From an uncultured Gammaproteobacteria bacterium (GTDB taxonomy: Bacteria > Patescibacteriota > Microgenomatia > UBA12405): a stretch of DNA of 28,594 nt. Location: contig CAZCYK010000002.1 of NCBI GenBank assembly GCA_964502975.1, positions 1-28,594 of the forward strand. The letters run 5' to 3'. The notes beneath the pieces were generated by a model, which made no database searches, was not told the origin of the DNA, and saw nothing but the letters and a program-made list of their open reading frames with translations. The position numbers and the translations under genes were made by a program. Below are positions 5,109 to 28,594 of the stretch, in pieces; the first letter of the stretch is position 1; each line of letters starts with the position of its first letter.

Positions 5109-5111
5109 CCT

Positions 5112-8926: not shown

Positions 8927-8946
8927 ATAAAGATAGATTTTTTTTA

Positions 8947-9061: not shown

Positions 9062-9068
9062 GTTAAAC

Positions 9069-9077: not shown

Positions 9078-9082
9078 TGCAT

Positions 9083-9478: not shown

Positions 9479-9590
9479 TTGATTAGATAAGTAGATAAGA
9501 AGTTGAGAAGTAAAAAATGTTACGGTATAAAAACGGTTAATATGCGGAGAATGGATTAGTTTATTAGTTAATTAGTAAATAGTAAATAAA
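9476..9590 (+). repeat. Two degenerate 7-8-bp tandem tracts after the RNHCP stop
   Basis: tagttgat tagataag tagataag aagttgag ... ttagtttattagttaattagtaaatagtaaat. Confidence 0.6.
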
Positions 9591-9599
9591 TTTTTTTGT

Positions 9600-9686
9600 T
9601 TGACTCGACAATATTTATTTCGGGCTTGCAACCATCGTAAAATCCACTCAGAGGCATCGCCCTGCAATAAACATTGTCTGCGTCAA
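9600..9686. repeat. Long hairpin element (copy C), 87 nt, TTGAC...GTCAA ends
   Basis: TTGAC-TC-GACAAT-a-TTTATT-tc-GGGC...GCCC-tgc-AATAAA-c-ATTGTC-TGC-GTCAA. Confidence 0.85.
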
Positions 9687-9721
9687 ACCGTAGTTATAAA
9701 ACAAATTAAGGTTGGTTTGGA

Positions 9722-9730
9722 TGGTATAAT
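9722..9730 (+). promoter_or_regulatory. Extended -10 (TGgTATAAT) 6 nt upstream of the ftsH ATG
   Basis: aTGgTATAATgggagcATG. Confidence 0.75.
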
Positions 9731-9736
9731 GGGAGC

Positions 9737-11761: not shown

Positions 11762-11805
11762 AGAAGTAGTTGAGTAGATGAATAGTATTTAGCTGAAAGA
11801 GGAGG
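11759..11805 (+). promoter_or_regulatory. 8-bp tandem tract from the ftsH stop, then an SD-like GAGGAGG (11799-11805) 7 nt before ATG 11813
   Basis: tagagaag tagttgag tagatgaa tagtattt ... GAGGAGGggaaaaaATG. Confidence 0.55.
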
Positions 11806-11812
11806 GGAAAAA

Positions 11813-14287: not shown

Positions 14288-14301
14288 TTGCAAGGAAATT
14301 T

Positions 14302-14310
14302 TGGTATAAT
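14302..14310 (+). promoter_or_regulatory. Extended -10 (TGgTATAAT) 6 nt upstream of ATG 14317
   Basis: tTGgTATAATttagatATG. Confidence 0.75.
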
Positions 14311-14316
14311 TTAGAT

Positions 14317-17300
14317 ATGAGTGAAAGAGGGCCTGAAGGGATAAAAATAACAATGGATAAATTGGCTAATTCTGCCGGCAATGAAGGAGTTAGAAAAGGA
14401 GAATTATCAGCATATGCAGAGAAAAAAAACGCAGTGTCTCAGCCTTTGGATGAAAAGGGTTATCTGGGTCCAGACTATGATAAATTTTTGAGAAGATTAG
14501 TGGTTGATGTGACGATTGGTTTAATCGATCTTGATAAAAACAGAGCAGGACATGAAGGTGAAGTTGATAGTGCTTCTGAATCTTTGGTTCGTTCTAAGTT
14601 TGGGGTGGGTAGCGTGAGTGAATTTAAGGATAGAATTGATGCTCAAAACTATAACTCTGGAGCCGTGACGAGATCTTATGAGAGGTTAACAAAATCGGTA
14701 AAATTGTTTCTTAATAAAAAAGGGTTTAGTGATGAAGCGTTGAGTACTATGTCGCCGCAAGAAATTGATGCCCAACTTTTTAGAAATTTTGAAGGGATTG
14801 GTTCGGATGTTAAAAGGGTATTGGTCGTGGATGGTCAACTGAAAACAGTTTTGAAGAAAGTCGATAATGTTCTAAATCGTGTGGAAATTTTAGATCAGGG
14901 TAGAAAGAAAAAAATGGACCTTAAAACAATTGATAAGGCTATGGATAAGGCTGAAGAAATTTTAGTTGGAAAAGCGATGGGAGATGATGCTTTGAAAAGA
15001 CAATCAGAATTGGTTATCGATTATTTGACTATATTAAAAAGAGAAGTTGATCAGGGAAAAGGAGATGCTGAAGTTGAAGATTGTATTGTGGGTTTTATCG
15101 GAGAACATATTCTAAGAAAGGGATTAACTCTTGATGATGAAGGTAATCTTAAGAGTACTAATGGAGATGATTTTACTTTATTAAAAGATGAGGAGGGAAG
15201 GACTCGGTATTATGACAATGGAGAAAAAATGTATATACATCCGGAAATAGTAAGGTGGATGAAAAAAAGAAATGAAAATATAGAGGATTTGATAATGATA
15301 ACTAGTAATGGGGAATTTAGTGATATAAGAGAGATAGACGCTGTTCTTAATAATGAGAATGAATTTATTTTGGATGATTATATTAGAAATAAGTATGTGG
15401 AAGGGAATGATTTGGGTAGAGGGAAAAAGGCGGATTTGTTGGTTATCAAAGATCAGCTGGGAAGATGGTTTTGTGATGCAATTAGAGATAGTGGTGATGA
15501 GACAAACAGAACTGTTTTGGGGACTTTAAACGCTTATAAAATTGAAAATTTATTACCCATGGGAGCAACAGGACTTGGGGTGGATATTGTTATAAATGTG
15601 TCAAATGATGTGTTGATAAGAAAAGCCCTGAAACAGGTTTGTGCTATAGATATGAAGAAAGGATCTTTGGGAGAACGAGAAAATATTGATGGTTTTTCGT
15701 CCATTGAGACTAAAAAGAACTCAATGGGAGAAATTAAAAGAATAATTGAGAAGATAACTGGCGATAATAAACGATATTTAGAGGGGGATAATAATTACCG
15801 GACAGAAGTTGACGGACTAGTAAGGCTGCTTAATGAGAGAGTTGTAAAATATGATCGATTGATTGCCCACCAAGAGAAAGTGGGTAGATATGGAGAACAG
15901 ATTCCAACTGAACCAGAACGAGTAGGAGAAAGGTTGCTGTATGCTAGAAAATTACTTGATTATGTTGAAGATAGCGGTTCTCCTCCTGGTAGTTTAAATA
16001 TTATGGATCAATGTACGAGACTATTTGAAATGTCTAGATTAGACTCTGTGGAACAAGAAATAAAAGATGAAATTCATGCGAGATTACATTTGGCTTTTAT
16101 GTTTTATCATATGCATGCTGCTGGTGGGTTGTTGAATAATAGGGGGCAGAGTATCGAAGACGCACACGAAAAGGGTTATGCAGACGGAATGTTGTTGGAC
16201 AAAATAACAATGGACTTTTTACTTAAAAATGGAGCAAATGGACTTCCGGTGGCCGAATGTTGGGATGCGATTGAAGAATTAAATTTTGGTTGGGAAAACG
16301 GAAAACCAGTTAAGGATAATGATAGTTATTTTAGGCTGTTATCGTTAATGGTTGGAATTGACTATACTAAAATTCAATATGAGAATGGGGACAGAGAGGG
16401 CAAAATCTCTTGGGAAAATAGTAAAGACGCGTCTTTGCCAATAACCGTGGATAATACAGAGGGTAAATTTCTAATTTCGATGAAAGAAAATGGTTTGAAG
16501 TTTTTGGGAGTAAAAGGAGAATTGACTGATGAAGCTTACTTGGCTAAATGGAATGAGATTGCGAACCCTTATGAAGTTAAAGAGGAACAAATTACATATA
16601 GACAAAAATTTGTGGGTGATTTTTATAAACTTCAAAATCCGGAATCCTTTTTTTGGGGAAAAGGAGCAGAAAACGCAATGAGGTTTAATTATTTTACAGA
16701 TATTAGTTCTGGTAGAAAGGGTATGGTGAAAGATTTTTTATTAACTGACATAAAAGAAAAAAGAGAAGCCAAAAATATTGGGAAATCTGAGACAGAAAAA
16801 TTGCCAACAGACAAAAAGTCTTTGGAGAAAGGTTTTGAATTGGCTGAAAAACTATTAGAAGCAACAGCTGAGACTTCGGTGTTTAATCCTTGTTTTGCGG
16901 GTCATAATGATTTTTCAGAATTGATTTTGACTGAAGCGAATACTAAGGATAGACAAAAGAAGATGAAAGTGATTGGTATGAGAGTAGCAATGGCTGATAT
17001 TGTTAGTTTTTATACTACCTGGCCAAGATACATAGCAGGCAATAAAGATAGTGATAGAAGAAGTGTGTTTAAACCACTTTATGCCGAACAAATTAAGACA
17101 GAAAGAATGGATAACCCTAAAAATGATTCTTATTTTTTGATGACGGCCATTTTGATAAAAAAGATTTTACCGGTGCAAGCATTTTTAATGAAAGAGGATA
17201 TCGGTAGTAAAGATTTATTGACGGTGGAATTTTGGAAAAAATTATATGATCCAATTTCGAAAGTAATTAGTTATGGCCAAGATGTTTTGACAGATCCTGA

Positions 17301-17643
17301 TGATGACTTCAAAACGATTAAAGTAACAGATAAAAATAAAAAAGATTTAAGTCGCAGACTTCGATTGTTAGTAGCGCGAGCAGTATTTCAATCGGCAATA
17401 AGTCCAACCAGTGATTTCGACTGGGGTGGTCTTAATTTGTTAGGTGATACATTAACAACAAAATTTACAACTGTAGACAATATTAGTGAAAAAGATGAAG
17501 AAGAAAGCTTTATTGAAAGAGAAGATAGGAGTTCATTAATAAATGATTCTGGTTTGAAAGAAGCGATGGAAGTTAAACATCAAATTTTATTGAATGCATC
17601 TAAAGAAAAGGAAAGAGATCAGATAGGTCGTGGGAGAAAATAA
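14317..17643 (+). CDS. Large (1108 aa) hydrophilic hypothetical protein; no recognised domain, signal peptide or TM
   Basis: Long uninterrupted ORF with its own -10 box; rich in K/E/D. Confidence 0.85.
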   Translation: MSERGPEGIKITMDKLANSAGNEGVRKGELSAYAEKKNAVSQPLDEKGYLGPDYDKFLRRLVVDVTIGLIDLDKNRAGHEGEVDSASESLVRSKFGVGSVSEFKDRIDAQNYNSGAVTRSYERLTKSVKLFLNKKGFSDEALSTMSPQEIDAQLFRNFEGIGSDVKRVLVVDGQLKTVLKKVDNVLNRVEILDQGRKKKMDLKTIDKAMDKAEEILVGKAMGDDALKRQSELVIDYLTILKREVDQGKGDAEVEDCIVGFIGEHILRKGLTLDDEGNLKSTNGDDFTLLKDEEGRTRYYDNGEKMYIHPEIVRWMKKRNENIEDLIMITSNGEFSDIREIDAVLNNENEFILDDYIRNKYVEGNDLGRGKKADLLVIKDQLGRWFCDAIRDSGDETNRTVLGTLNAYKIENLLPMGATGLGVDIVINVSNDVLIRKALKQVCAIDMKKGSLGERENIDGFSSIETKKNSMGEIKRIIEKITGDNKRYLEGDNNYRTEVDGLVRLLNERVVKYDRLIAHQEKVGRYGEQIPTEPERVGERLLYARKLLDYVEDSGSPPGSLNIMDQCTRLFEMSRLDSVEQEIKDEIHARLHLAFMFYHMHAAGGLLNNRGQSIEDAHEKGYADGMLLDKITMDFLLKNGANGLPVAECWDAIEELNFGWENGKPVKDNDSYFRLLSLMVGIDYTKIQYENGDREGKISWENSKDASLPITVDNTEGKFLISMKENGLKFLGVKGELTDEAYLAKWNEIANPYEVKEEQITYRQKFVGDFYKLQNPESFFWGKGAENAMRFNYFTDISSGRKGMVKDFLLTDIKEKREAKNIGKSETEKLPTDKKSLEKGFELAEKLLEATAETSVFNPCFAGHNDFSELILTEANTKDRQKKMKVIGMRVAMADIVSFYTTWPRYIAGNKDSDRRSVFKPLYAEQIKTERMDNPKNDSYFLMTAILIKKILPVQAFLMKEDIGSKDLLTVEFWKKLYDPISKVISYGQDVLTDPDDDFKTIKVTDKNKKDLSRRLRLLVARAVFQSAISPTSDFDWGGLNLLGDTLTTKFTTVDNISEKDEEESFIEREDRSSLINDSGLKEAMEVKHQILLNASKEKERDQIGRGRK

Positions 17644-17667
17644 TAATTACTAATAAATTGTCGTTTT

Positions 17668-19314
17668 TTATGTGCGTCTAGATTTTCCCTTCGGACTGTC
17701 TGGCGCAGATGATGTAGATGGTGTGGGTGATGCAGGTGATGTGGATGATTTGGAGTGGCGTGGTACATATTCTCCCTTATCTATTTTTCTATTGTTTACC
17801 CAAGTATTATATGGTGCTTTTATTCTACCCCATGCGTCATGTGCTTTCCCACCAATCATATCCTCTGCTCTCCTTTCAAGTCCACCTTTTGCAGTTTTCA
17901 TTCCGGGAAGACTGGCGTAACTATCACCGATCATTTTGTTAATCGGAGATGGTTTGATATTGAAAAGGAATTCGGGGACAATTTGGGGAATTTTGGAGAG
18001 TAACATGATACCGGTAAAACCGATTATAAAGCCGACAACTTCGCCGTTGGCAAGCATATTTGGTGCCCAAAAATAACTGTTATCGCCAGCCACAGCTCTA
18101 ACAAAAATGATTATAACTACGAGAAAAATAAGAGTGGCGGGGAAAACGACCAGATTGGCAATGAGTTGAACAATCCAAGAAGAAAAGTTTATTTTACTTC
18201 CAGGGAAAACCCCAAGAGCAATTTCTAGTGGTGCAATAACAATTTTTAAGAGGATATTTATATAGCATTTGGCTAGACCAAAAAATAATTTAACAAGTTG
18301 TATAAAAATAATTAGGTCAAGTAAAAAGAGGCCTAAAAAGGCACCAATACCACTAGATGTCATTTTGGAGAATAAACCGCCACCGGTAAAAAAACCTATA
18401 ATAAGTCCTATTATTGCGCCAAGGGATCTAAGTGTACCTTGGCTAGCTTCAGTTAAAAAGTACTTTGAGGTGATCCATTGAACCCCCCAAAAATTAAGAT
18501 TCATTATTTTGGGGACATCGTAACCGGTTATAGTATTAGCTATGGTATTAGGACCGTCACTATTATCGATTAGAGAGAGAACAATTCCTTGAAAAACATA
18601 GCTAAAATCAATTAGTAAACCAACTATGGCATAAGAAAAAGTAACAAGAATTAGAGTGATAATGATTTTTGGAATTATTACTTGGATGCTAATGGTAGCT
18701 TGAGGACTAATTTTTACTCGAAGCATGATCATTATGCCAAGAATAATAAAAAAGAGAGAAATAAGGGTATAAACAGCATTTCTTAGGGTTTTCCAAAGTG
18801 ACATAATACCGTTATTGTTGGCATTAAGAGTATCAAACCCAAAACCGTTGGCTGCGTAAGTAGGCTTGCCGAGAAAATTATCTATAGTGTGGGCAATGTA
18901 TTGAACGCCAGAAATTGGTGGCTGGTAAAGAGTAGCGATGGAATTATTGGTAAATCCAAGTAAGCCTCCTGGAACCCAGTTACCACTAGCAAGGTCTCCT
19001 TGCGTAACATCACCAATAATGCCGTTATTTAAAGAAAAAGCAGTGTTTATTATTTGTTCGTTGTTCCAAGTTTCTAGATTAAAACTTTCCCTGATGGCTT
19101 CTTGTTTGCCTAGAAGTGCTTCATTAAACTCGGTTTGATCGGAATTAATTTCAAGATCACCGTATCCTACATTTTGAGCAAAAATGTTTTTGGTTATAAA
19201 AATAGATCCAGAAATTATGGCAAAAACTAAAATAAATTTTGCTAGAGGGTTTAGACGGGGGAATAGTCGAGTGTCACGACGATTGAGATGGTTAAAAAAT
19301 CGTTTCAATTTCAT
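17668..19314 (-). CDS. Polytopic membrane protein, TrbL/VirB6-like (CPR type)
   Basis: Signal-like N-terminus ending IFA; W.TLRNAVYTLISLFFIILGIMIMLR...IPKIIITLILVTFSYAIVGLLID block; about 6-7 TMs; Ser/Pro-rich basic tail; co-oriented with the pilin array. Confidence 0.6.
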   Translation of the reverse strand: MKLKRFFNHLNRRDTRLFPRLNPLAKFILVFAIISGSIFITKNIFAQNVGYGDLEINSDQTEFNEALLGKQEAIRESFNLETWNNEQIINTAFSLNNGIIGDVTQGDLASGNWVPGGLLGFTNNSIATLYQPPISGVQYIAHTIDNFLGKPTYAANGFGFDTLNANNNGIMSLWKTLRNAVYTLISLFFIILGIMIMLRVKISPQATISIQVIIPKIIITLILVTFSYAIVGLLIDFSYVFQGIVLSLIDNSDGPNTIANTITGYDVPKIMNLNFWGVQWITSKYFLTEASQGTLRSLGAIIGLIIGFFTGGGLFSKMTSSGIGAFLGLFLLDLIIFIQLVKLFFGLAKCYINILLKIVIAPLEIALGVFPGSKINFSSWIVQLIANLVVFPATLIFLVVIIIFVRAVAGDNSYFWAPNMLANGEVVGFIIGFTGIMLLSKIPQIVPEFLFNIKPSPINKMIGDSYASLPGMKTAKGGLERRAEDMIGGKAHDAWGRIKAPYNTWVNNRKIDKGEYVPRHSKSSTSPASPTPSTSSAPDSPKGKSRRT

Positions 19315-19374
19315 TTATATATAAAATTCTAACAAAAAATAAAAGGTATAACAATCTTAGTATTTTAATTTAAA

Positions 19375-21468
19375 TTAATTTGGTGTGAGAGTTTGGTTGT
19401 TTGGGTTGGAGGGTTGGCCCTTAAAATCATCTTCATCGGTATACTCTGGAATAAAAACTGGTTCATTTGGGTCAAGATTTTGATAACAACCATAGTAGGT
19501 TTTTTGGGAATTGGTTTCTGGAGCAACTGCACGACCAACGTTTTCAAATTTTCTGCCATCAAAGAAGGGAGGGCTGGTTTGTACTTCACAAAGTTCACTA
19601 TAAATGTTGCCATCGATAATATTGTAGTTTTCGTCAACCAAAAATTGGTTTTCGGTAGAATCTACGGCGCTAGTCGAATTAGTAGTTAATCCTTTGCTTA
19701 GGGCAATTTTGTTGTCATGTAAAGAAACACAGCGAAAAACTTGTTGGCCAGCATTTTTGAAATCAATAGTGAATGGGGTATAACCCGTGGCATGGTTTTG
19801 GAGTAAAATTGAAATGGTCTTTTTTTCTCTCTCAAATTGTTGTTTATCTCTGGAATCGAAAAGATTGTTACGACAGGGAATGATTAGTGACCTCCAGGCT
19901 TCGACATGCCAGCCGTTGAATATTTCGGCAATACCATATAAATAGTTGTCGACCGACATAGTGACGGCATAGGTACAGCTTCCGTTCCATTTATCTTTTA
20001 GCTCGTTCCAAACTTCTTTTGGATTATTAATATTGGAGGTGAGATTAATTCCTTTATTTTGCATGTCTTCAGCCCAAAGTTTTTGTTCACTTTCTGATTT
20101 ATTGTCGAATTCGGCTTCGGTTCCAGGCCAATTATCTTGACAATTGTAGTTTGGATCTTCGGGTTGTTGCCAATCTACACTGCTTTTTGCTTGGGCGATG
20201 TTAATAATTTCGTATTTAATTTCACTGTCGTATGAATTGGCTAGTTTAATACAATTTTGATATTTTTCTTTACTGTTTGCTGGAGTATCTATATTGTTTC
20301 CGTCACCATTGTGTTCCCAGTGATCAAGAAGGTAAATTTTTACTTGATAGTATTGGGTGCTAAAATTGGGAATTTTATAGATAGACTTATCTTCGCCAAA
20401 ATAACTTTTAAGAATTTTTTGGTGACTGTAGCCAAGCATGGCCATGCCGAAAGCACCGTATTGGCTATAACCTTCAGTAAATGTTTCCTTTTCGAGTCTT
20501 TTGGCATCACAGTAAGCGTCATTGAGTTTATATTCTTTTGCCAAATCAGTAGAGTCTTTGGGAAGGCTGGATTTTTGCCATTTTTTGGAGATAATCCAGT
20601 TTTTCCAAGATTCGCGTAGATATTCGCGATTTTTGTCTTTATCTTTTGGATTGCCTTCGTTGTTAGTATCATTGGAAACGCAGGGAATATAGCCATGACC
20701 TGATTTGGGTATTACCCCCAATGTTCCATATTTGTCTTGTTTGTCATTATCTGCCCCTACTGCAAGAGCTTCTGATGATGTTTTATTATCGGTGGGAGCG
20801 TCTTGACCTTGCCCTTTTTTTGCTATGGAATAACGTAAGATATTGTTAAGCTGGTTACTAACTCCGGTCGCGGCATCTTTGGCTCCCGCAAAATAGCCTT
20901 TAGGAACATCTTGGTAATTTGTATAAAGATTTTGATAACAAATATCAGGATTGGAGAGTTCCTTTTCACAGTTAAGTGGACTTATGTTGTTAAGCTCTTC
21001 GTCGTCATATTCAATTGCTACACGATTGTTACGTTTGTAGAGAATTTTTTCATCACGTTTTTTATGAAAACAGATTATGTCATTAATACTAATATCTTGG
21101 GGGCAGTTGGTTTTGTCGTCGATGGGAAGAGCTTCGTTTTTTTTGTTTTTTCCAAACAAATCAGTAGTAAGAATTTCATAAAACCAGACTCCTCTTTGGT
21201 ATCTTTTTAGGGCTTCAGGGGTAATCCTGTTGGCTACATCTTGGTTTTCAGCGGTATAATCGGTGTGTGAGTCTTTTTGGTCTAAAACAGAAGGGTTGGC
21301 ATTGTTGGTTATATGAGAAATGTTTTCTCCAAAAATACGTTCAAAAACTCTGGTTATCCAAACCCAAATAGTTTCTCCGCCTTCTTGATTATCAGTTGCA
21401 AAAATAGTAGTGGGTAGACTAATGAAAAAAGAGAGAAAAATAAGAAAAACAAGTAACTTTTTTTTCAT
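19375..21468 (-). CDS. Secreted Cys-containing protein (697 aa) with SpoIID/LytB-like motifs in permuted order
   Basis: ATG 21468 overlaps the upstream pilin stop (TAATG) and gives a clean signal peptide MKKKLLVFLIFLSFFISLPTTIFA; EGYSQYGAFGMAMLGYSHQKILKSYF and MSVDNYLYGIAEIFNGWHVEAWRS. Confidence 0.7.
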   Translation of the reverse strand: MKKKLLVFLIFLSFFISLPTTIFATDNQEGGETIWVWITRVFERIFGENISHITNNANPSVLDQKDSHTDYTAENQDVANRITPEALKRYQRGVWFYEILTTDLFGKNKKNEALPIDDKTNCPQDISINDIICFHKKRDEKILYKRNNRVAIEYDDEELNNISPLNCEKELSNPDICYQNLYTNYQDVPKGYFAGAKDAATGVSNQLNNILRYSIAKKGQGQDAPTDNKTSSEALAVGADNDKQDKYGTLGVIPKSGHGYIPCVSNDTNNEGNPKDKDKNREYLRESWKNWIISKKWQKSSLPKDSTDLAKEYKLNDAYCDAKRLEKETFTEGYSQYGAFGMAMLGYSHQKILKSYFGEDKSIYKIPNFSTQYYQVKIYLLDHWEHNGDGNNIDTPANSKEKYQNCIKLANSYDSEIKYEIINIAQAKSSVDWQQPEDPNYNCQDNWPGTEAEFDNKSESEQKLWAEDMQNKGINLTSNINNPKEVWNELKDKWNGSCTYAVTMSVDNYLYGIAEIFNGWHVEAWRSLIIPCRNNLFDSRDKQQFEREKKTISILLQNHATGYTPFTIDFKNAGQQVFRCVSLHDNKIALSKGLTTNSTSAVDSTENQFLVDENYNIIDGNIYSELCEVQTSPPFFDGRKFENVGRAVAPETNSQKTYYGCYQNLDPNEPVFIPEYTDEDDFKGQPSNPNNQTLTPN

Positions 21469-21842
21469 TATTGAGCGTCGGGGATAGTAAAATCGGTAAC
21501 ATTGACCCCAGTGAATTCTTTGATAAACAATAAAATTAACCAAGAGACAAGAACACCGATTATACCGATAAAAGACATTGTAATAGTGTGGCTGGCAGCA
21601 GCAGCTTTTTTGGGATCACCACCTGAAGTGATATATTTAAAACCGCCAACCAGAAACATGGCAAAAAAAGTAAGACCGGCAAGGGGAACAATAACTTGGA
21701 GAATATTTTGGAAAAGACATTCGAAACCTTGGATGGTGGCGACGTCTTTATTTTCACCAGCAACACATTTTCCATCTAGCATTTCTTTCCACTGTTCTGC
21801 GAAAACAGGGGAGGGAGAGAAAAAATTAGTTAAGTGGTTCAT
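21468..21842 (-). CDS. VirB2/TrbC-like pilin-family membrane protein P8
   Basis: Two hydrophobic helices around GGFKYITSGGDPKKAAAASHTIT. Confidence 0.8.
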   Translation of the reverse strand: MNHLTNFFSPSPVFAEQWKEMLDGKCVAGENKDVATIQGFECLFQNILQVIVPLAGLTFFAMFLVGGFKYITSGGDPKKAAAASHTITMSFIGIIGVLVSWLILLFIKEFTGVNVTDFTIPDAQ

Positions 21843-21848
21843 AAATTA

Positions 21849-21854
21849 ATTATA
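21849..21854 (-). promoter_or_regulatory. -10 box TATAAT 6 nt upstream of the P8 ATG
   Basis: Minus strand: cctgTATAATtaatttATG. Confidence 0.65.
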
Positions 21855-21889
21855 CAGGAGAAATTGCTCTTAAAAAATAGAACTTGAAA

Positions 21890-22588
21890 CTATTCTTGAT
21901 AAAAAGGCTGGATAATTAGATTCGTAAAGTCAAATCCAAAAACAGTGCTAATAAGTCGCATGAGAGCCCAAGCGATAAAAACTATAGTTAGACCAATTAG
22001 GCCATGGGTAATAGAGGTCCGTGCGGCTGCTAGTTTTTTTTCGTCACCACTGGAGGTAATCCACTTGATACCACCAAAAAGAAGAATAAAAAAGAAAGTG
22101 ATAGAAGCAATGATATAAATAATATTTACCGCGGTGGAAATCATGCTTCCCGAAGTGATTGTTCCGAGCCCCGAAAAATTCCCTGGGGCATTAAGATCAA
22201 TTATGTCGTCGGAGGTTGAGTTGTTAGGAGAAGAACTACCACCAGTACTATTTGGGTCAGATTCCGGGGTACATTCTCTTTTTCCGCTTTCACACCCATT
22301 AGGGCAATTTGTTTTTTGCCAAGTTCCATCATCTCTACAAGTACGGAGTTCGCTTGCGGAGGAGTAACAAAATGAAAAACCGACATCATAATTGGATTTT
22401 CCATCGGTAGTACACATGTTTTTACAGGTCCATTTGCTTCCGTTTCGGGAACAAGATTCAGCACTTCCATAATTTGTGTCACTACATTGGCATACTTCGA
22501 CCCCTTTAACCGGAGAGATAAAAATTAGGGTGAAAATAAAAATTGTTAAAAAAACTGTTAAAAAATTTTTTATTATTATTAATTTCAT
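21890..22588 (-). CDS. Pilin-family protein P7 with a signal peptide and a 10-Cys N-terminal domain
   Basis: Classical signal peptide; ten Cys in ~80 aa; Ser-rich linker; core GGIKWITSSGDEKKLAAARTSITHG. Confidence 0.8.
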   Translation of the reverse strand: MKLIIIKNFLTVFLTIFIFTLIFISPVKGVEVCQCSDTNYGSAESCSRNGSKWTCKNMCTTDGKSNYDVGFSFCYSSASELRTCRDDGTWQKTNCPNGCESGKRECTPESDPNSTGGSSSPNNSTSDDIIDLNAPGNFSGLGTITSGSMISTAVNIIYIIASITFFFILLFGGIKWITSSGDEKKLAAARTSITHGLIGLTIVFIAWALMRLISTVFGFDFTNLIIQPFYQE

Positions 22589-22697
22589 TTTAGTAAGTCA
22601 AGAGTATTAAAGACTGGTTTATAACTGAATTATACTAGAATTAATAAAAATAAAAATTGTTAAATTATTGATAGTGAATAAATTAATACAAATTAAC

Positions 22698-22729
22698 AAA
22701 ATCCCTCTTCAAAACAAAAGAGGGGTTTT
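22698..22729 (-). terminator. Intrinsic terminator-like hairpin downstream of P6, possibly bidirectional
   Basis: aaaatCCCTCTTcaaaacaaAAGAGGGgtttt; T-tracts on both strands. Confidence 0.65.
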
Positions 22730-22754
22730 AGATTTCTAGTTTTTAAATTATTTA

Positions 22755-23159
22755 TTAGATTTTTGGAGGTACTAAAGCAGGAACTGCAAGCTGAAAAAAA
22801 TCAACTTGGAAAACGGCGCCAAGAAGTCTCATTATCGCCCAAGCGGCAAAGACAATGGCTAAACCAACCATGCCACTAGTTATAGAAGCACGAGCAGCAG
22901 CGACTTTTTTCTCGTCTCCACCAGAGGTTATCCACTTGATACCACCTCCAACTAGGACAAAAAAGAAAATTAGTGAAGTAATAATAAAAACTATGGACAT
23001 TAACCAGCCCAATATTTGACCGAATGTCAGACCGGCGATGCCTGAAAATGCACTACCTTCAGGTAACTCCGTTTTTAGTTCGGTAGCTAGATCTGTTGCC
23101 GCATAAGCTGGAATAGCAAATGAAGCAAGGTATGATTTATTTTTTATTTTTCCAATCAT
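22755..23159 (-). CDS. VirB2/TrbC-like pilin-family protein P6
   Basis: GGGIKWITSGGDEKKVAAARASITSG between two hydrophobic helices; leader ends AIPAYA. Confidence 0.82.
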   Translation of the reverse strand: MIGKIKNKSYLASFAIPAYAATDLATELKTELPEGSAFSGIAGLTFGQILGWLMSIVFIITSLIFFFVLVGGGIKWITSGGDEKKVAAARASITSGMVGLAIVFAAWAIMRLLGAVFQVDFFQLAVPALVPPKI

Positions 23160-23254
23160 TTTTTGTTTATAATTAATAATTAACTAATATTAACAGTAAT
23201 CTTTATGGTTTGTAAAGTGGCTTGTAAGTTTTTTAATATTATTTTTTAATTAAA

Positions 23255-23689
23255 TTAGACAGGGTTGGTGGGGTTGGGGTTTAAAAAACTGGGTATATTG
23301 AGTTGAAGGATATTGATACCAAAAAGTAATTCAATAACTTTTAGAATTACCCAGGAACTAAAAATAATAATTAAACCGACAAGCCCGTGGGTTATTTGGC
23401 CGCGGGCAGTAGTAAGTTTTTTTTCGTCACCAGATGAAACGATCCATCGGTAACCTCCAGTAAGAAGAATTAAAAAGAAAACGATAGTAGTAATAGTGAG
23501 AGCAAGGCTAATAGTTCCGGATATAAAATTTTTTGGGGTAATTGTTGTAAGATTTTTAAAATCACCACCCACACCAAGCTGGAGTTTGTCAGTAGTAGTG
23601 TTGGCCTCTCCCTCATCGGCATAAATAACTGGAGGGAAAGGAATGATCGCATATATTATTTTATTTTTAATTGAATTGAAATTAATCAT
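23255..23689 (-). CDS. VirB2/TrbC-like pilin-family protein P5
   Basis: GGYRWIVSSGDEKKLTTARGQITHG. ATG 23689 (8 nt after the P4 stop) is preferred over the overlapping TTG 23716. Confidence 0.8.
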   Translation of the reverse strand: MINFNSIKNKIIYAIIPFPPVIYADEGEANTTTDKLQLGVGGDFKNLTTITPKNFISGTISLALTITTIVFFLILLTGGYRWIVSSGDEKKLTTARGQITHGLVGLIIIFSSWVILKVIELLFGINILQLNIPSFLNPNPTNPV

Positions 23690-23697
23690 AGTGAATA

Positions 23698-24069
23698 TTA
23701 TAATAAGTTTGGCCAAGCGATTTCTAAAGTTTCTAGGCCATTAATTCCAAAAACAATACCGATGAATTTTAATATTACAAAAATAGAAAAGACAACGACA
23801 ACACCGACTACTGAATAAGTGAGTGATTTTTGGGCTTCTTCCCATTTTTTGGGATCGCCTTGAGAAGAAATCATATGGTAAGCAGACATAACAACGTGCC
23901 AAATAAAATAAATGACTCCGACCATAATAAAAAGAGTCACAATGGTTTGGATGACATTATTGGTGTAAACGATGGGTGAATTGGCGATTTTATTTTTTGC
24001 TGAATCAGTATCGCATCCTGGTTCGAGAATGGGGTTGCAGACAGCGTAAATTGATTTTATTAGTTGCAT
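23698..24069 (-). CDS. VirB2/TrbC-like pilin-family protein P4
   Basis: SAYHMISSQGDPKKWEEAQKSLT; N-terminal Cys pair. Confidence 0.8.
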   Translation of the reverse strand: MQLIKSIYAVCNPILEPGCDTDSAKNKIANSPIVYTNNVIQTIVTLFIMVGVIYFIWHVVMSAYHMISSQGDPKKWEEAQKSLTYSVVGVVVVFSIFVILKFIGIVFGINGLETLEIAWPNLL

Positions 24070-24070
24070 A

Positions 24071-24433
24071 TTATTGTTCTAATTGTGGTGATAAATTTTC
24101 AAAAATTTTTTCTAAATTGAAGATATTTTCAATACCAAAAAGATTGGCGAGAAGGGCAGTAATGCCGAAAGCGATAACAACTATGGTAATACCCAAAATT
24201 CCATCGGTAAGTCGTTTGCGGGCGGATTCAATTTTCTTTTCATCACCTTGGGCGGATAAAAATGAATAACCAGCAAAAATAACTTGGAGAACAAAAAAGA
24301 TAAAAGCAACAAGGGTTAGAACACCTATGACTGTGGAAATAATTTTGTCAAGTTCAGTAACTCCATAGTCATCCCCTGTCACATTAATTCCGACTCTACT
24401 TTCTAATTTTATCGCTAATAGATTAGATTTCAT
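24071..24433 (-). CDS. VirB2/TrbC-like pilin-family protein P3
   Basis: AGYSFLSAQGDEKKIESARKRLTDG. Confidence 0.8.
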   Translation of the reverse strand: MKSNLLAIKLESRVGINVTGDDYGVTELDKIISTVIGVLTLVAFIFFVLQVIFAGYSFLSAQGDEKKIESARKRLTDGILGITIVVIAFGITALLANLFGIENIFNLEKIFENLSPQLEQ

Positions 24434-24436
24434 AAT

Positions 24437-24790
24437 TTATTCGTAAACAGGTGTGATAACAGGATCAAGAATGTTGTTCATACCAACTAGTCTGCCAATA
24501 ACTGCGGTAAGAACAAAGGCACTGGAAACGATAACTAAACCAATAATACTTTGGTAAATTTTGGCCCAAGCGGCTTCAGTTTTTTTTGGGTCACCGCTGG
24601 CAGATATATAAGCAAAACCAGCTAGAAGAATTTGAATTACAAAGAAGACGCCAGCGACAACCCCAACGAGACTAAATAACCGATTTAATAAAATAAATAT
24701 TCCACCTCCTTGATCACCTTCTATATAGGCCTCGTCAATAAGCGGAGTTAAGACTTCTGGGGGGGTAATTTCTCCAAATATTGATAACAT
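24437..24790 (-). CDS. VirB2/TrbC-like pilin-family protein P2
   Basis: AGFAYISASGDPKKTEAAWAKIYQSIIG. Confidence 0.8.
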   Translation of the reverse strand: MLSIFGEITPPEVLTPLIDEAYIEGDQGGGIFILLNRLFSLVGVVAGVFFVIQILLAGFAYISASGDPKKTEAAWAKIYQSIIGLVIVSSAFVLTAVIGRLVGMNNILDPVITPVYE

Positions 24791-24812
24791 ATGTTGATTA
24801 TAACTGAGTATC

Positions 24813-25154
24813 TTATGGCAATAAAGGGTTTAATATTCGCAAACCAGTGACGGTTTGGATTATTTGAATAATAAAATAGGCACAAAAAACAACTAAAAAA
24901 CCAATAACTGCACTAGTAATGGTTTTTTTTGATTGTTCGGCTTTTTTACTGTCACCTGAACCAGCACTAGCAATCATATTGAAACCACCAAAAAGAACAA
25001 GACCAAGAAGGATAATACCAGCGACAACAATTGCGTTGGTAAGAAGTGAACTAATAAGAGGGGAAATGCTGGTATATTTGTCAATGGTATTATTGCTATT
25101 ACCTCCAAGTGGTAATTTACCAATGTCAACAGCAATTAACAAACGTTTGTTCAT
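24813..25154 (-). CDS. VirB2/TrbC-like pilin-family protein P1
   Basis: GGFNMIASAGSGDSKKAEQSKKTITSAVIG. Confidence 0.8.
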   Translation of the reverse strand: MNKRLLIAVDIGKLPLGGNSNNTIDKYTSISPLISSLLTNAIVVAGIILLGLVLFGGFNMIASAGSGDSKKAEQSKKTITSAVIGFLVVFCAYFIIQIIQTVTGLRILNPLLP

Positions 25155-25161
25155 TGAAGAA

Positions 25162-25167
25162 ATTATA
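25162..25167 (-). promoter_or_regulatory. -10 box TATAAT 7 nt upstream of the P1 ATG
   Basis: Minus strand: agaTATAATttcttcaATG. Confidence 0.65.
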
Positions 25168-25244
25168 TCTAAACTTGATTAAAAAAGCGAATAAGAAAAA
25201 TAGGGAGTTGATTTGTTAAAAATAGTGTTATAATACGCCACTTT

Positions 25245-25294
25245 ATTTAGTTGATTAGATAACTAGTTATTTAGTTTATTAGTATAATAGTTGT
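25245..25294 (+). repeat. 8-bp tandem tract whose last units contain the TATAAT -10 (25283-25288), 6 nt before ATG 25295
   Basis: ttagttga ttagataa ctagttat ttagttta ttagTATA ATagttgt ATG. Confidence 0.7.
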
Positions 25295-26173
25295 ATGAAA
25301 AAAACTGCCCCATTAATAATAGTATTTGGTATTTGGTATTTAGTATTTAGTATAAGACCAATTGAGGCGATAACAAAAACTACTACACCTATCGTGGAGA
25401 TCACTCCAGTAGCGACAGTAACAGCAACGGTGATACCCGAACCGACTATAGTAGTCAATAATATTACGGAACCTCAAGGGAAAGAAATTGAAATTAAAGA
25501 AGTAAAATGGAATGGATTTAATACTTTTAAGGTAGCTATAAATTGGGCAGTAAAACACGGAGTGTCGACGAATACTTTAGTGTTATTGTTCTTGTTGCCT
25601 TTGGTGGCAACACTAGTTTCGTTTTTGCATTATGTGGTGGGACTGTCAGGATATGGAATATTTATGCCAACAATGATTGCAATTGCTTTTTTGGCAACTG
25701 GAATTTTTGGAGGATTGATATTATTTAGTTTGATTTTAGTAATATCTTTGGTTAGCAATATGGTGTTGCGCAAGTTTAAGCTTCATTTTTGGCCAGCTAG
25801 ATCAATTAGTTTGATGTTTATTTCGATTGGTACTTTTGTATTGATGATGTTGTCTTCTTTTGTTAATTCGATTGATATTAGTAAAATTTCGATTTTTCCA
25901 ATATTGTTTATGATTTTGTTGACTGAGGAATTTAGTCGAACTCAATTGGCGAAAAGTAAAAAAGAAGCGAAGAAATTAACAATTGGGACGGTGGTATTGG
26001 CAATTACTGGAGCAGGGGTAATGAATTTTTCGCTAGTTCAAGAAACAGTGTTGAAATATCCTGATGCAATGATAGTAATAGTACTAGTAATTAATTTATT
26101 GGTGGGGAATTATACTGGGATTAGATGGTCAGAGATTGGGAGATTTAAGAAAGGAATAAGAAATAAAAACTAG
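25295..26173 (+). CDS. 7TM protein of the ATP-grasp-associated (7TM_transglut-like) family, with a signal peptide and Thr/Pro/Val-rich stalk but no transglutaminase domain
   Basis: LVLLFLLPLVATLVSFLHYVVGLSGYGIFMPTMIAIAFLATGIFGG motif; directly upstream of the alpha-L-glutamate-ligase-like gene. Confidence 0.75.
   Translation: MKKTAPLIIVFGIWYLVFSIRPIEAITKTTTPIVEITPVATVTATVIPEPTIVVNNITEPQGKEIEIKEVKWNGFNTFKVAINWAVKHGVSTNTLVLLFLLPLVATLVSFLHYVVGLSGYGIFMPTMIAIAFLATGIFGGLILFSLILVISLVSNMVLRKFKLHFWPARSISLMFISIGTFVLMMLSSFVNSIDISKISIFPILFMILLTEEFSRTQLAKSKKEAKKLTIGTVVLAITGAGVMNFSLVQETVLKYPDAMIVIVLVINLLVGNYTGIRWSEIGRFKKGIRNKN
25320..25354 (+). repeat. 7-bp tandem repeat inside the CDS, encoding the signal-peptide h-region VFGIWYLVFSI
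   Basis: tagtatt tggtatt tggtatt tagtatt tagtata, the same unit as intergenic 2317-2351. Confidence 0.8.
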
Positions 26174-26205
26174 ATTTAAGGTTTAAGAAATTAGATTTAA
26201 GAATA
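26171..26205 (+). repeat. 7-bp tandem tract starting at the 7TM stop codon
   Basis: tagattt aaggttt aagaaat tagattt aagaata. Confidence 0.65.
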
Positions 26206-26208
26206 ATT

Positions 26209-27582
26209 ATGTTAAATTTAAAAAAATATCGAAGGTTTTTGACCAAAAATGAGCGGAATAAGGTTTATTTGAGGAAAAACACAGCCAAGGGTAGAACAAT
26301 TGCTGATAGTAAATATAGAACAAAGAAATTGTTGGCCAAAAAGGGTGTGGGGGTACCGGCTTTGATAGCTAGGTTTAAAAATGAGACAGATTTGATAAAT
26401 TTTAGATGGGAAAATTTGGAAGGTAATTTTGTGATTAAACCAGAATCGGGTTATGGTGGTGAGGGAATTATTATTGTTCGGAAAAGAGGAAAATGGGCGG
26501 GAGAATGGCAAAAAATGAATGGAGAAAAAATTACTACCCAGGATTTACAACTTCATTGTCAGGAAATATTGGCTGGTAAATATAGTTTACATTCGATGAA
26601 GGATACAGTATTGGTAGAAGAGAGAATTAAAATTCATCCTTTGTTTTTGGCGCTTACACGATCGGGAACACCAGATATCCGGGTGATTGTTTATAATAAA
26701 GTACCAGTGATGGCAATGTTTAGAATTCCAACTGAAAAATCGGGAGGTAAGGCAAATTTACACCAGGGAGCAATTGGGTTGGGAGTGGATTTGGCTACCG
26801 GAATTACCACTTTTGGAGTGGAAAAAGGAGTGCCGATTTACCGAATATATGATTTTAATAAAAAGAAAAAACGAAAAGTGAATGGAATAAAGATTCCTTT
26901 TTGGAGAGAGATATTGGAAACTGCGGTAAAGTGTCAATTGGCAATACCAAGTCTCGGGTTTATGGGGGTGGATGTAGTACTAGACAAGGAAAAAGGACCA
27001 GAAGTGTTGGAGGTAAATGCTCGGCCTGGTCTGTCAATCCAACTTTGCAATATGGCTGGGCTAAAAGGTCGGATAGAAAAAGTGGATGAAATTGAAGTAA
27101 GAAATGTGGACCATGCGATTACTTTGGCAAAGTATCTTTTTGGAGAAAAGTTTTTTGTAAAAATTGAAGAAAAAGAGAAAAATAGAACAATTGATTCGGT
27201 GGAGACGATAAGGGTGAAAATCCCTAAAGGTTTTGATCTAAAAGATGAGAATATAAAAATTATTAAAAAAGGGAAACACCGGATGGTAGAAGTGGAGGCA
27301 AAAATTGATACTGGAGCCTTGAGAAGTTCGATAGATGAAAGTTTGGCTAAACAATTGGGATTGTTGGTTGAGGATAAAATATTGTATTATCGTCACTATC
27401 GATCGGCTTTGGCTAAGTCGCATGAAAGACCGGTAATTGGGATAAATTTTTGGTTAAAAGGGAAGAAAATTTCAACAACGGTTAATGTGGCTAGTAGAGA
27501 AGGGTTGACGGCTAGATTTTTGATTGGAAGGAGAGATTTAGATGGGTTTTTAATAAAGGCAAAAGGAAATGAGAAGAAATAA
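26209..27582 (+). CDS. Alpha-L-glutamate-ligase-related ATP-grasp (ATPgrasp_ST type) fused to a C-terminal retropepsin-like RimK-associated peptidase domain
   Basis: NERN...ADSKYRTKKLL, FVIKPESGYGGEGI, GTPDIRVIV..VPVMAMFRIPTEKSGGKANLHQGA, LEVNARPGL; C-terminal AKIDTGA...ERPV...LIGRRDL. Confidence 0.85.
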   Translation: MLNLKKYRRFLTKNERNKVYLRKNTAKGRTIADSKYRTKKLLAKKGVGVPALIARFKNETDLINFRWENLEGNFVIKPESGYGGEGIIIVRKRGKWAGEWQKMNGEKITTQDLQLHCQEILAGKYSLHSMKDTVLVEERIKIHPLFLALTRSGTPDIRVIVYNKVPVMAMFRIPTEKSGGKANLHQGAIGLGVDLATGITTFGVEKGVPIYRIYDFNKKKKRKVNGIKIPFWREILETAVKCQLAIPSLGFMGVDVVLDKEKGPEVLEVNARPGLSIQLCNMAGLKGRIEKVDEIEVRNVDHAITLAKYLFGEKFFVKIEEKEKNRTIDSVETIRVKIPKGFDLKDENIKIIKKGKHRMVEVEAKIDTGALRSSIDESLAKQLGLLVEDKILYYRHYRSALAKSHERPVIGINFWLKGKKISTTVNVASREGLTARFLIGRRDLDGFLIKAKGNEKK

Positions 27583-27634
27583 AATAGAATGTTTAAATTT
27601 TTTACTTGATAATGATTTTTTATTATTTTCTTTG

Positions 27635-27721
27635 AAAAATTCTCGTTACGAATTTTTTCACTGGAAAATGAGTCTGCGTAGCAGGCTCAAAAACGTTCAA
27701 AAACTGTAACTTCGAATTTTT
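27635..27721. repeat. Long imperfect hairpin element (copy E), homolog of 3763-3850
   Basis: aaaaattc-TC-gttac...gtaac-TTC-gaattttt; inner stem gagtctgc/gcaggctc; preceded at 27604-27621 by acttgataatgatttttt, identical to the 5' arm of copy A. Confidence 0.8.
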
Positions 27722-27743
27722 ATTTATATAATTATTAAAATTT

Positions 27744-28594
27744 ATGAAAAACAAAATTGCAATTTTTTATGGAGGGAAACTGAGTGATAAGATTGAGGAA
27801 TTTGTAGGGGCGGGGGAGAAAATGGGGGTGAAGGTGGACGCGATTAGTTATGGTGAAATTTATATGAATTCTCAGGAAAAAAGTAATGGGAAAATGATGA
27901 TCAAATTTAAATCTGGTAAAAAATTGGAAGATTATGGGGTAATTTATTTTAAATTTGTGAAACATTATCGGGAAGAAGCATCGTTAATAATGGATTGTAT
28001 TGATGATGATGTGAAAGTGATTGATTCGGTATTAAGACGTGGTCGACCAAGTGATTTTTGTAAAATTCACCAGATGAAGGCAATGATAGATGCTGGTTTG
28101 AATGTGCCAAGATTAGTGATGGGAAGGTTAAAATATTTAAGATATGAAGCGATAAAACAATTTGAATATCCATTGGTATTAAAAGGAAGCCAAGGAGACA
28201 GGCGATCTCAGGTGTTTAAATTTTTTAATGATGAGAGTTGGGATAAAGGCTGGGATGTGTTTTGTGAAAGGGAAATTAACGAAGGACAAAGGTATATGCT
28301 TCAAGAATATATAGTGAATACTGAAGATTATCGGGTAATGGTATTAGGGGATAGTGTTTTGGGGGTAATGAAGAGAGCGACTGGGGAAAACCCGCTTCTT
28401 AAAAATGTATTTACTAAGGCTGAATTGCCAGATTATGTATTAGAAAAGGCAATAGCTGCAGCTAAGGCGTGTGAAATTGAAGTGGCAGGAGTGGATGTAG
28501 TATTTAAAGAAGGAGTGAAGGATCCTTATTTTTGGGAAGTAAATCGAGCTCCAAATTATGATAGATTTGTGGAAGTGACGGGGATTAATGTGGC
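27744..28594 (+). CDS. RimK/LysX-family ATP-grasp ligase, 3' end outside the window
   Basis: Not in the ORF track (no stop). Manual translation: MKNKIAIFYGG...AGLNVPR...YPLVLKGSQG...YMLQEYI..TEDYRVMVLG...AGVDVV...WEVNRAPN, open to the window end. Confidence 0.85.
   Translation, partial: MKNKIAIFYGGKLSDKIEEFVGAGEKMGVKVDAISYGEIYMNSQEKSNGKMMIKFKSGKKLEDYGVIYFKFVKHYREEASLIMDCIDDDVKVIDSVLRRGRPSDFCKIHQMKAMIDAGLNVPRLVMGRLKYLRYEAIKQFEYPLVLKGSQGDRRSQVFKFFNDESWDKGWDVFCEREINEGQRYMLQEYIVNTEDYRVMVLGDSVLGVMKRATGENPLLKNVFTKAELPDYVLEKAIAAAKACEIEVAGVDVVFKEGVKDPYFWEVNRAPNYDRFVEVTGINV

Follow-up and report, generated by a model that had tools for sequence, protein, structure and literature searches.

Does a tandem array of pilin-like genes near the replication origin of a Patescibacterium specify a surface apparatus complete in itself, or one part of a larger secretion system? 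The question is raised by a locus at positions 17668-25154 of contig CAZCYK010000002.1 (assembly GCA_964502975.1); the whole stretch of 28,594 nucleotides that was analysed is called the 28.6 kb window here. A preliminary description of the window had listed ten co-oriented genes in this locus, and we found all ten as minus-strand open reading frames (ORFs): eight for small pilin-like proteins (P1 to P8), one for a secreted SpoIID-like protein and one for a polytopic VirB6-like protein. In our assessment the locus is very probably cluster B (pilins, wall hydrolase and VirB6) of a chromosomal, non-conjugative type IV secretion system (T4SS) of Candidatus Shapirobacteria, whose cluster A lies, in relatives, about 20 kb away across dnaA-dnaN.

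Each of the eight small proteins (113-232 aa) has a short basic loop between two strongly hydrophobic helices (Kyte-Doolittle), and all eight match PF18895 T4SS_pilin (E = 1e-10 to 3e-5), which bears out the earlier view that these genes encode T4SS (VirB2-like) pilins. The gathering score of PF18895 (26.6 bits) was reached by seven of them (27.8-42.0 bits), P3 falling below it with 24.5 bits, and the NCBIfam Mycoplasma ICE pilin-like protein model was matched by all eight below its cut-off. In the six-frame translation of the window GD-x-KK occurred exactly eight times, once in each pilin gene and nowhere else, and S-x(1-3)-GD-x-KK fitted every pilin. The strict motif G[GA][FY]x[YWM]IxSxGD[PE]KKxxxA that had been ascribed to all eight is thus sound in its GD-x-KK core but too narrow as a whole, since the full motif matches P5 and P8 only. 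As paralogues the pilins are 28% identical on average (maximum 44%); their N-terminal regions cannot be aligned, as had been stated, and the class III prepilin motif is absent from them, also in agreement with the earlier account.

The polytopic protein (17668-19314, minus strand, 548 aa, at least seven hydrophobic segments) is most probably a highly divergent VirB6, because four independent, individually weak signals agree and its position behind the pilins is invariable; the VirB6-like identity proposed before is therefore upheld. Firstly, when an AlphaFold2 model (predicted local distance difference test, pLDDT, 66.7; helical core of residues 170-450 at ~80-90) was compared by Foldseek with ~350,000 PDB chains, the top six matches were all R388 TrwI/VirB6 chains (probability 0.85-1.0); 7o3v_F and its sequence-identical chains are TrwI/VirB6, TrwJ/VirB5 (226 aa) being too short for the 260-272-residue targets. 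Secondly, PF04610 TrbL/VirB6 was matched by four of 52 distant family members (best E = 7.2e-6). Thirdly, hhalign against an alignment of 13 plasmid VirB6 proteins gave E values of 7e-4 to 1.4e-3 and placed the invariant P362, I365 and W380 on TrwI P181, I184 and W199, with an identical 18-residue spacing from Pro to Trp; the conserved VirB6 core is GPxFI...W. Fourthly, a VirB6 hidden Markov model (HMM) scored 11.7 bits for the window protein and up to 20 bits in the family, always in the same region, against at most 5.3 bits for shuffled sequences (whole-sequence score) and 0.7 bits for unrelated polytopic proteins (domain score). The family is large: a word-indexed search gave at least 683 matches, and an exhaustive one (individual matches taken from the best 150 listed) gave 3,815 clusters at 50% identity. 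It is probably the component reported as scarce in Microgenomatia, a scarcity attributed to extreme divergence (PMC12102498).

These genes keep company in related genomes. We compared seven other loci (L001, L004, L005, L089, L090, L091 and L092; eight counting the window), whose VirB6-like proteins are ~30-61% identical to that of the window, and found the order pilins, one or two secreted proteins, VirB6-like gene in all eight, so that the proposed linkage of pilins, hydrolase and VirB6-like gene holds beyond this genome. The VirB6-like gene stands two genes past the last pilin in the window and the other loci, and three past it in L001. Five Shapirobacterial loci have the same flank of orphan, ftsH, RNHCP and DUF4012 genes; on the other side, 7TM_transglut and ATP-grasp genes flank the pilins in the four Shapirobacterial relatives that cover that side, the L004 contig ending within the array. 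In the window itself the order from the edge is rpmH (partial), rnpA, yidD, yidC, jag, Wzy-like and flippase genes, a DUF4012 gene, RNHCP, ftsH, a ClpB-like gene, a large orphan and then the locus, beyond which lie the 7TM_transglut, ATP-grasp and RimK-like genes. The window YidC is up to 84% identical to Candidatus Shapirobacteria proteins, which makes the Microgenomates lineage named in the preliminary description more specific. These neighbours and the YidC identity indicate that the locus is chromosomal, about 17-25 kb from the replication-origin region, in a Microgenomatia lineage.

No VirB4, VirD4, VirB11 or relaxase domain was detected in the scanned ORFs of the window, as had been noted earlier, and the window starts inside rpmH, whose 3' part (3-137, plus strand) shows where the contig breaks off at the origin. 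In relatives with 72-76% YidC identity, rnpA, rpmH, dnaA and dnaN lie within 10 kb upstream of yidC, and past dnaA-dnaN there is a VirB4-type ATPase of 784-791 aa (PF19044 P-loop_TraG, PF12846 AAA_10, PF01935 DUF87). The gene order of this cluster A is a PrgI/VirB3-like-CarboxypepD_reg gene, a TraC-like gene, VirB4 and a gene for a large, variable protein, whose L010 version has NlpC/P60 and EEP domains; of four relatives examined, two had an NlpC/P60-type region directly after virB4. Overlapping loci of a 906 kb contig give a continuous map: cluster A, dnaN-dnaA on the opposite strand, rpmH, rnpA, yidD, yidC, jag, ftsH and the orphan, then on the opposite strand the VirB6-like gene, the hydrolase gene or genes and the pilins, and finally 7TM_transglut. 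The VirB4 homologue P0357 shares a contig of 906,714 bp with pilin locus L001, and P0325 shares one of 148,166 bp with L004. In relatives 19-21 kb separate VirB4 from the VirB6-like gene, and at least 11 further pairs of VirB4 and VirB6-like matches are on contigs of equal size. Neither a relaxase nor a coupling protein came to light in the window or, in relatives, within the 20 kb loci that surround VirB4 and the pilins. The PrgI-like match upstream of VirB4 stayed below threshold (24.2 bits versus 27). In L075 (8353-9285) and L076 (8335-9270) this protein, two genes upstream of VirB4, joins the sub-threshold PrgI N-terminus to a CarboxypepD_reg beta-sandwich, which would be an unusual VirB3 fusion.

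The gene between pilins and VirB6 encodes a secreted modular protein (19375-21468, minus strand, 697 aa from ATG 21468) with a signal peptide, a clade-specific N-terminal module (residues 1 to ~300, 20569-21468) that is common to Shapirobacterial post-pilin proteins, and a SpoIID domain. Only nine homologues were found in 5.8 billion clusters, six of which match PF08486 SpoIID, and the two most distant add a C-terminal VanY peptidase. The profile of the nine-member family matches only SpoIID structures in the PDB (5i1t, 5txu, 4rwr; E ~2e-12): positions 320-356 align with the last 36 residues of SpoIID (5i1t chain 292-327) and positions 451-596 with SpoIID residues 28-174, an inverted segment order compared with the canonical one. 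In the window protein the segment like the C-terminal end of SpoIID is GYSQYGAFGMAMLGYSHQKILKSYF (residues 333-358, 20395-20472; TIGR02669 positions 239-264 of 270, E = 1e-5), and the segment like its N-terminal half spans residues ~498-640 (19549-19977; aligned to 5i1t chain residues 28-174). Judged from sequence, the domain is thus a circular permutant whose segments are not in the canonical N-to-C order, and the earlier claim of a secreted, permuted SpoIID-type enzyme is sustained. The permutation is presumably old, because the compact SpoIID proteins that fill the corresponding place in L089 and L090 (34-53 bits on PF08486) have the same swapped order. The window protein itself had no Pfam match and reached 25.6 bits on TIGR02669, over 26 residues only, versus a cut-off of 83.3. 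Glu515 (19924-19926) in DNYLYGIAEI falls on the GEM-motif Glu of SpoIID (5i1t chain position 77; residue 101 in the 354-residue chain 5txu), and this Glu is conserved in all full-length members (YLxGVxxxE motif). The motif ...SQYGAxGMA...IL..Y is conserved too. In Clostridioides difficile SpoIID the catalytic residue is E101. Lytic-transglycosylase-type catalysis by the putative enzyme is plausible.

How such a system might work can be proposed by analogy with the R388 system, in which the VirB6 pentamer forms the base of the stalk according to the PDB entry descriptions. VirB6 and VirB4 take part in pilus assembly. The pilins would insert in the cytoplasmic membrane with the basic GD-x-KK loop towards the cytoplasm and both termini outside; a VirB6 oligomer would be the platform where VirB4 extracts them and stacks them into a filament or conduit, and their polymerisation into a T4SS-dependent filament is predicted. 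Paralogue-specific N-termini, including a Cys-rich domain of P7, would decorate the filament exterior, and the hydrolase would open peptidoglycan, of the cell's own wall or the host's, for passage of the structure. The system would then serve host contact or exchange rather than DNA conjugation.

Several results weigh against this reading. VirB4 is not in the window and is placed in this genome by synteny with the relatives of 72-76% YidC identity, the lack of a motor ATPase within the window being explained by the contig end in rpmH, with cluster A presumably just beyond. The VirB6-like window protein has no Pfam or NCBIfam match, the TrwI matches are weak (E 0.02-0.19; target-normalised TM-score 0.31-0.43, the best with E about 0.02 and 0.41-0.43, from a model of pLDDT 66.7) and the hhalign probability for VirB6 is only 18-26%; no VirB6 was found when multi-TM (transmembrane) family profiles were compared with PDB sequences, and hhalign against the single TrwI sequence found nothing. 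Likewise, a profile of 34 pilins gave nothing against PDB sequences at E up to 10, nor did hhalign of the pilins against TrwL; since no solved VirB2, TraA or TrbC structure was found by sequence, VirB2 homology rests on PF18895 membership and published structure-based annotation. The one trace of such similarity is the faint PF04956 match of P3; a common fold is still compatible with these negatives. In the SpoIID domain of the window clade, GHGxGMSQ reads TEGYSQYGA, so that its His and Arg are missing, and ~150 aa are inserted, which makes catalytic competence uncertain. The AlphaFold2 model of this protein (pLDDT 39.7, from the nine-sequence alignment) was unusable, so that the permutation was tested by sequence instead. 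Finally, to our knowledge a filament has never been observed in any Patescibacterium.

The first question left by this proposal is whose wall the hydrolase cuts. The N-terminal module of ~300 aa is common to the post-pilin proteins of L004, L005, L089 and L090 and to a stand-alone 340-aa protein of L001 (BLAST 1e-11 to 1e-30; HMM 387-464 bits; no Pfam match). The catalytic part is permuted SpoIID in the window, L004, L005, L089 and L090 and SpoIID plus VanY in P0128 and P0129, while the slot is filled by a separate Big_2 plus NlpC/P60 protein in L001, in the distant L092 by a GH5 'cellulase' protein that lacks the N-module, and by a 484-aa Cys-rich protein with no recorded domain in L091. The post-pilin gene thus appears to carry interchangeable wall-degrading domains. 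The GH5 'Cellulase' of L092 (2272-5217, 981 aa), between the pilins and the VirB6-like gene, has in its C-terminus ALWIEESGAN, reminiscent of the lytic-transglycosylase E-S motif; a polysaccharide-degrading enzyme in a T4SS slot hints at action on the host envelope.

The preliminary description had put the SpoIID enzyme in the VirB1 role, which is plausible but has a competitor in the NlpC/P60 hydrolase encoded directly after virB4 in relatives. The post-pilin hydrolase might instead be a weapon against the host envelope, either delivered or displayed at the tip, with the NlpC/P60 protein doing the VirB1 job, an explanation that we regard as somewhat doubtful. An interchangeable module is what differing host walls would lead one to expect, NlpC/P60-type regions do follow virB4 in half of the relatives examined, and the hydrolase gene occupies the VirB5 slot of MPF_T operons (MPF, mating-pair formation), just before VirB6; but no secretion signal besides a Sec leader was identified in the protein, its N-module has no detectable similarity to VirB5, and the Gram-positive T4SS hydrolases PrgK, TraG and CwlT, which pair two lytic domains, cut the donor wall (PMC12102498).

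The second question is what the pilins are to one another. Best matches among the 34 pilins of five loci (window, L001, L005, L089, L090) resolved six collinear orthogroups, namely P1, P2, P3, P4, the P5/P6/P7 type and P8, the last always at the end of the array. Orthologous pilins were 45-77% identical, versus 20-44% between paralogues outside the P5-P7 group; P1, P2, P3, P4 and P8 each had a positional orthologue at 50-77% identity in the four other genomes, and copy number varied in the fifth orthogroup only (a single copy in L089 and L090, two copies in L001 and L005, three in the window). N-terminal segments were paralogue-specific yet conserved among orthologues. Because orthologues are far closer than paralogues and the order is collinear, the comparison argues for a fixed set of six non-redundant subunits with one position free to diversify, and against a freely combinatorial or antigenically varying repertoire. 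The combinatorial repertoire of the preliminary description is weakened accordingly: variation in copy number is confined to the P5/P6/P7 position, and P1-P4 and P8 are fixed. Six pilins, the same number as the orthogroups found here, were reported for Southlakia (PMC12857230).

Among the individual pilins, all on the minus strand, P1 (orthogroup 1, 24813-25154, 113 aa; PF18895 E = 1.3e-9, 38.4 bits) has the loop SGDSKK between TM helices at 37-55 and 81-99, and positional orthologues 55-67% identical in L005, L001, L089 and L090. P2 (orthogroup 2, 24437-24790, 117 aa; E = 4e-9) has orthologues of 50-77% identity with the conserved N-terminus MLSIFG, and P3 (orthogroup 3, 24071-24433, 120 aa; E = 3e-5) has orthologues of 56-66% identity and a weak match to TrbC/VirB2 PF04956 (E = 0.11). 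P4 (orthogroup 4, 23698-24069, 123 aa; E = 4.4e-8; orthologues 50-73% identical) has an N-terminal Cys pair (IYAVCNPILEPxC) that is kept in the closest relative L005, as is the Cys pair of P8. P5 (orthogroup 5 copy a, 23255-23716; E = 3.2e-7) measures 153 aa from TTG 23716, but a start at ATG 23689 (144 aa) is more likely, because the leader MINFNSIKNK...PPVIYA then matches those of the orthologues ('M..IKNK...P[VA]YA'). P6 (copy b, 22755-23159, 134 aa; E = 2.7e-6) is nearest to P7 (56%, BLAST) and to the single pilin of this orthogroup in L089 and L090, and P7 (copy c, 21890-22588, 232 aa; E = 3.2e-7, residues 149-212) has a hydrophobic leader at 9-27 (signal peptide) in addition to two TM helices. 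P8 (orthogroup 6, 21468-21842, 124 aa; E = 1e-10, 42 bits) has orthologues of 53-75% identity, always directly upstream of the hydrolase gene.

Residues ~28-150 of P7, between its Sec-type leader and the pilin core, form a predicted extracellular, Cys-rich domain of ~130 aa (~15 Cys) that had no Pfam match and was found, among the compared loci, only in this genome's extra copy of the fifth orthogroup. Further, the short leaders of P4, P5, P6, P8 and their orthologues end in an aromatic-Ala motif (IYA, VFA, AYA, VYA; for example 24043-24069 and 21798-21842). Some pilin leaders, such as MQLIKSIYA, are too short and polar for an ordinary Sec signal peptide; the aromatic-Ala end may be a processing site for pilin maturation.

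The spacing of the genes agreed with the tight coupling of P1-P5 claimed earlier, with gaps of 22 nt (P1-P2), 3 nt (P2-P3), 1 nt (P3-P4) and -19 nt (P4-P5; +8 from ATG 23689, the start favoured by the orthologue leaders), followed by 95 nt (P5-P6), 166 nt (P6-P7) and 47 nt (P7-P8). The P8 stop overlaps the start of the SpoIID-like gene by one base (TAATG, the coupling already described), and 60 nt separate that gene from the VirB6-like gene. Of the separate -10 box assigned to P8, a TATAAT does lie upstream, but promoter-like sites occur at chance frequency: neither these (29 versus 27.2) nor terminator-like sites (8 versus 5.4) were richer in the region than in shuffles, and because both are at chance level we claim no operon structure from the scans. 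The only convincing terminator-like site of the region is a hairpin after P6 (22703-22724, minus strand; 8-bp stem with four GC pairs, then a T-rich tail).

With six conserved kinds in hand, it may be asked whether there is a pilus at all. The pilin-like proteins could be stoichiometric channel subunits that form a hetero-oligomeric ring or short stalk with VirB6 and no extracellular pilus, which we consider unlikely. Six orthogroups in fixed order at 50-77% identity are typical of non-redundant structural subunits, and such a channel would explain why six distinct, individually conserved kinds are retained; moreover, Gram-positive T4SSs are generally without a pilus (PMC12102498, PMC10633639), and none has been observed. 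PF18895 membership and the VirB2-like two-helix topology point instead to polymerising pilins, and the variable, partly Cys-rich N-termini together with the copy change at position 5 suggest surface exposure. The present data fit a long filament as well as a short stalk.

Going further, the six kinds could make one heteropolymeric filament on VirB6, with the post-pilin protein as a functional VirB5 analogue that carries a host-wall-breaching enzyme at the tip; we think this quite unlikely as a whole. The 300-aa N-module would dock on VirB6, ride to the filament tip and present there the permuted SpoIID, NlpC/P60 or GH5 domain, and, if true, the locus would encode both the needle and a cutting tip, specific to the host, of a device by which the epibiont feeds or attaches.

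Less probable still is that the array is a repertoire for host range or antigenic variation in which one major pilin is used at a time, as proposed for the VirB2 paralogues of Bartonella and Anaplasma. This idea, offered in PMC12102498, fits the 28% average identity of the paralogues, their unrelated N-termini and the expansion and diversification of the fifth position, with a new domain in P7, and the hairpin after P6 could allow differential expression. Yet five of the six kinds are single-copy, collinear and well conserved between genomes that share only 36-40% identity in the VirB6-like protein, a pattern opposite to rapid turnover. The close spacing of P1-P5 (-19 to 22 nt) speaks for co-expression, and the pilin series of Southlakia was reported as essential (PMC10633639).

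That the locus is instead a self-contained, ATPase-less, T4SS-derived filament locus with combinatorial pilins and no VirB4, as was first described, is very improbable: the window does lack a VirB4-, VirD4- or VirB11-type ATPase and the ten genes are compact and co-oriented, but its contig breaks in rpmH, VirB4 and its VirB3-like and TraC-like partners adjoin dnaA-dnaN just beyond that point in relatives, on the same chromosome as the pilin locus, the 11 or more contig pairs of equal size add to this, and the pilins are fixed orthogroups.

The reading that we prefer, a chromosomal non-conjugative T4SS divided by the origin, belongs to a known class. For its epibiotic growth S. epibionticum (Southlakia) requires an unusual T4SS that has several predicted pilins but neither relaxase nor coupling protein (Wang et al. 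2023, PMC10633639). The survey of Patescibacteria by Quinonero-Coronel et al. 2025 described an MPF_FATA-related VirB4 clade and 441 VirB2 arrays, each of 2-11 genes with ~25% identity on average, particularly in Microgenomatia and Saccharimonadia and situated near dnaA, rnpA and rpmH, with no relaxase, VirB1 rare and VirB6 scarce in Microgenomatia (PMC12102498); a pilus conduit was speculated on in a 2025 review (PMC12857230). Non-conjugative T4SSs with pilin arrays in bacteria of the candidate phyla radiation are therefore already published. Four details go unmentioned in these three papers, namely the layout in two parts on either side of oriC, the six pilin orthogroups, the candidate VirB6 family and the swappable hydrolase slot with its permuted SpoIID, of which the last three appear to be undescribed; SpoIID is mentioned in none of the ten top-ranked papers of a literature search.

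Like the Southlakia T4SS (SEML1_0006-0019) and the surveyed Patescibacterial systems, the present one is chromosomal and origin-proximal, has associated wall hydrolases and no relaxase nearby, and, in the relatives, an MPF_FATA-type VirB4 with PrgI- and TraC-like partners; tandem divergent PF18895 pilins are another likeness to Southlakia (six there, six orthogroups here). It differs in that, here and in the Shapirobacterial relatives examined, it is split by oriC and about a dozen housekeeping genes, its probable VirB6 is too divergent for published HMM screens, and the pilin-adjacent hydrolase is a permuted SpoIID. With the MPF_T systems (R388 Trw, Agrobacterium VirB) it shares two-helix VirB2-type pilins, VirB4 (here in relatives), a dedicated wall hydrolase (VirB1 there), a polytopic VirB6 (here a probable one, whose family aligns with it at the invariant Pro and Trp), and a gene for a secreted protein (VirB5 there) before virB6, whereas the host is here a monoderm, without the outer-membrane core of VirB7, VirB9 and VirB10, no VirD4, VirB11 or relaxase was found nearby, there are six to eight pilins instead of one, no VirB5 is recognisable and the hydrolase has the SpoIID rather than the SLT fold. 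PrgK (pCF10), TraG (pIP501) and CwlT (ICEBs1) are likewise membrane-anchored or secreted modular enzymes inside T4SS clusters, often pairing glycan- and peptide-cleaving domains (compare SpoIID plus VanY in P0128 and P0129, and NlpC/P60 in L001), but here the glycan-cleaving part is a SpoIID/LytB domain in circularly permuted form, not an SLT or muramidase domain, and the enzyme has the clade-specific ~300-aa N-module. Compared with SpoIID/LytB (5i1t, 5txu, 4rwr), the catalytic Glu motif and ...SQYGAxGMA...IL..Y are kept, whereas the C-terminal strand and helix come first, the ~150-aa insertion is present and the GHG histidine lost in the window clade, and the enzyme is unlinked to sporulation, SpoIIP or SpoIIM.

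Patescibacteria make up a large share of bacterial diversity, and how they attach to hosts and take up resources is an open question; the T4SS is among the few machines shown to be essential for their lifestyle, in one Saccharibacterium only. For the less tractable Microgenomatia, the present comparison offers a likely identity for the 'missing' VirB6, a fixed six-member pilin set that constrains models of filament or channel, and a hydrolase slot whose exchangeable content could reflect the type of host wall. It also calls for caution in annotation, as a system split across oriC looks ATPase-less in contig-level views.

Convergent with the VirB6-like gene is a gene for a large hydrophilic orphan of 1108 aa (14317-17643, plus strand), with no BLAST match even to the closest relative L005, no Pfam match and no TM segment seen. 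Its position is filled by a large ORF (785-934 aa) in five other syntenic loci, with almost unalignable sequences; that a fast-evolving orphan beside a secretion system is a substrate or effector is speculation. The orphan also lacks a Walker A motif. The ClpB-like AAA+ protein (11813-14287, plus strand; AAA_2, ClpB_D2-small) may be anchored in the membrane, to judge from its hydrophobic N-terminal region of ~130 aa; as a surrogate ATPase it was rejected, being of the ClpB family, present at that position in the window, L004 and L005 and absent from L001, L089 and L090. A PHROGs scan of P7, P8, the SpoIID-like and VirB6-like proteins and the 1108-aa orphan gave no match, and a prophage or holin-endolysin cassette was rejected in view of the chromosomal setting, class-wide synteny, housekeeping neighbours and PF18895 membership of the small proteins. 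GC skew of the plus strand was strongly positive (0.3-0.5) over the plus-strand genes (1-17000 and 25000-28594) and ~0-0.15 over the minus-strand locus (17000-25000), with flat GC content (0.32-0.40); this drop is a gene-strand effect on composition and no sign of foreign DNA. On the far side, only ~140 bp from P1 and divergent from it, lie 7TM_transglut (25295-26173, plus strand), an ATPgrasp_ST/Zn_protease-like ligase gene (26209-27582, plus strand) and a RimK-like gene (27.7 kb to the end), for which a link to the pilin locus, for example in surface protein or peptide modification, is possible.

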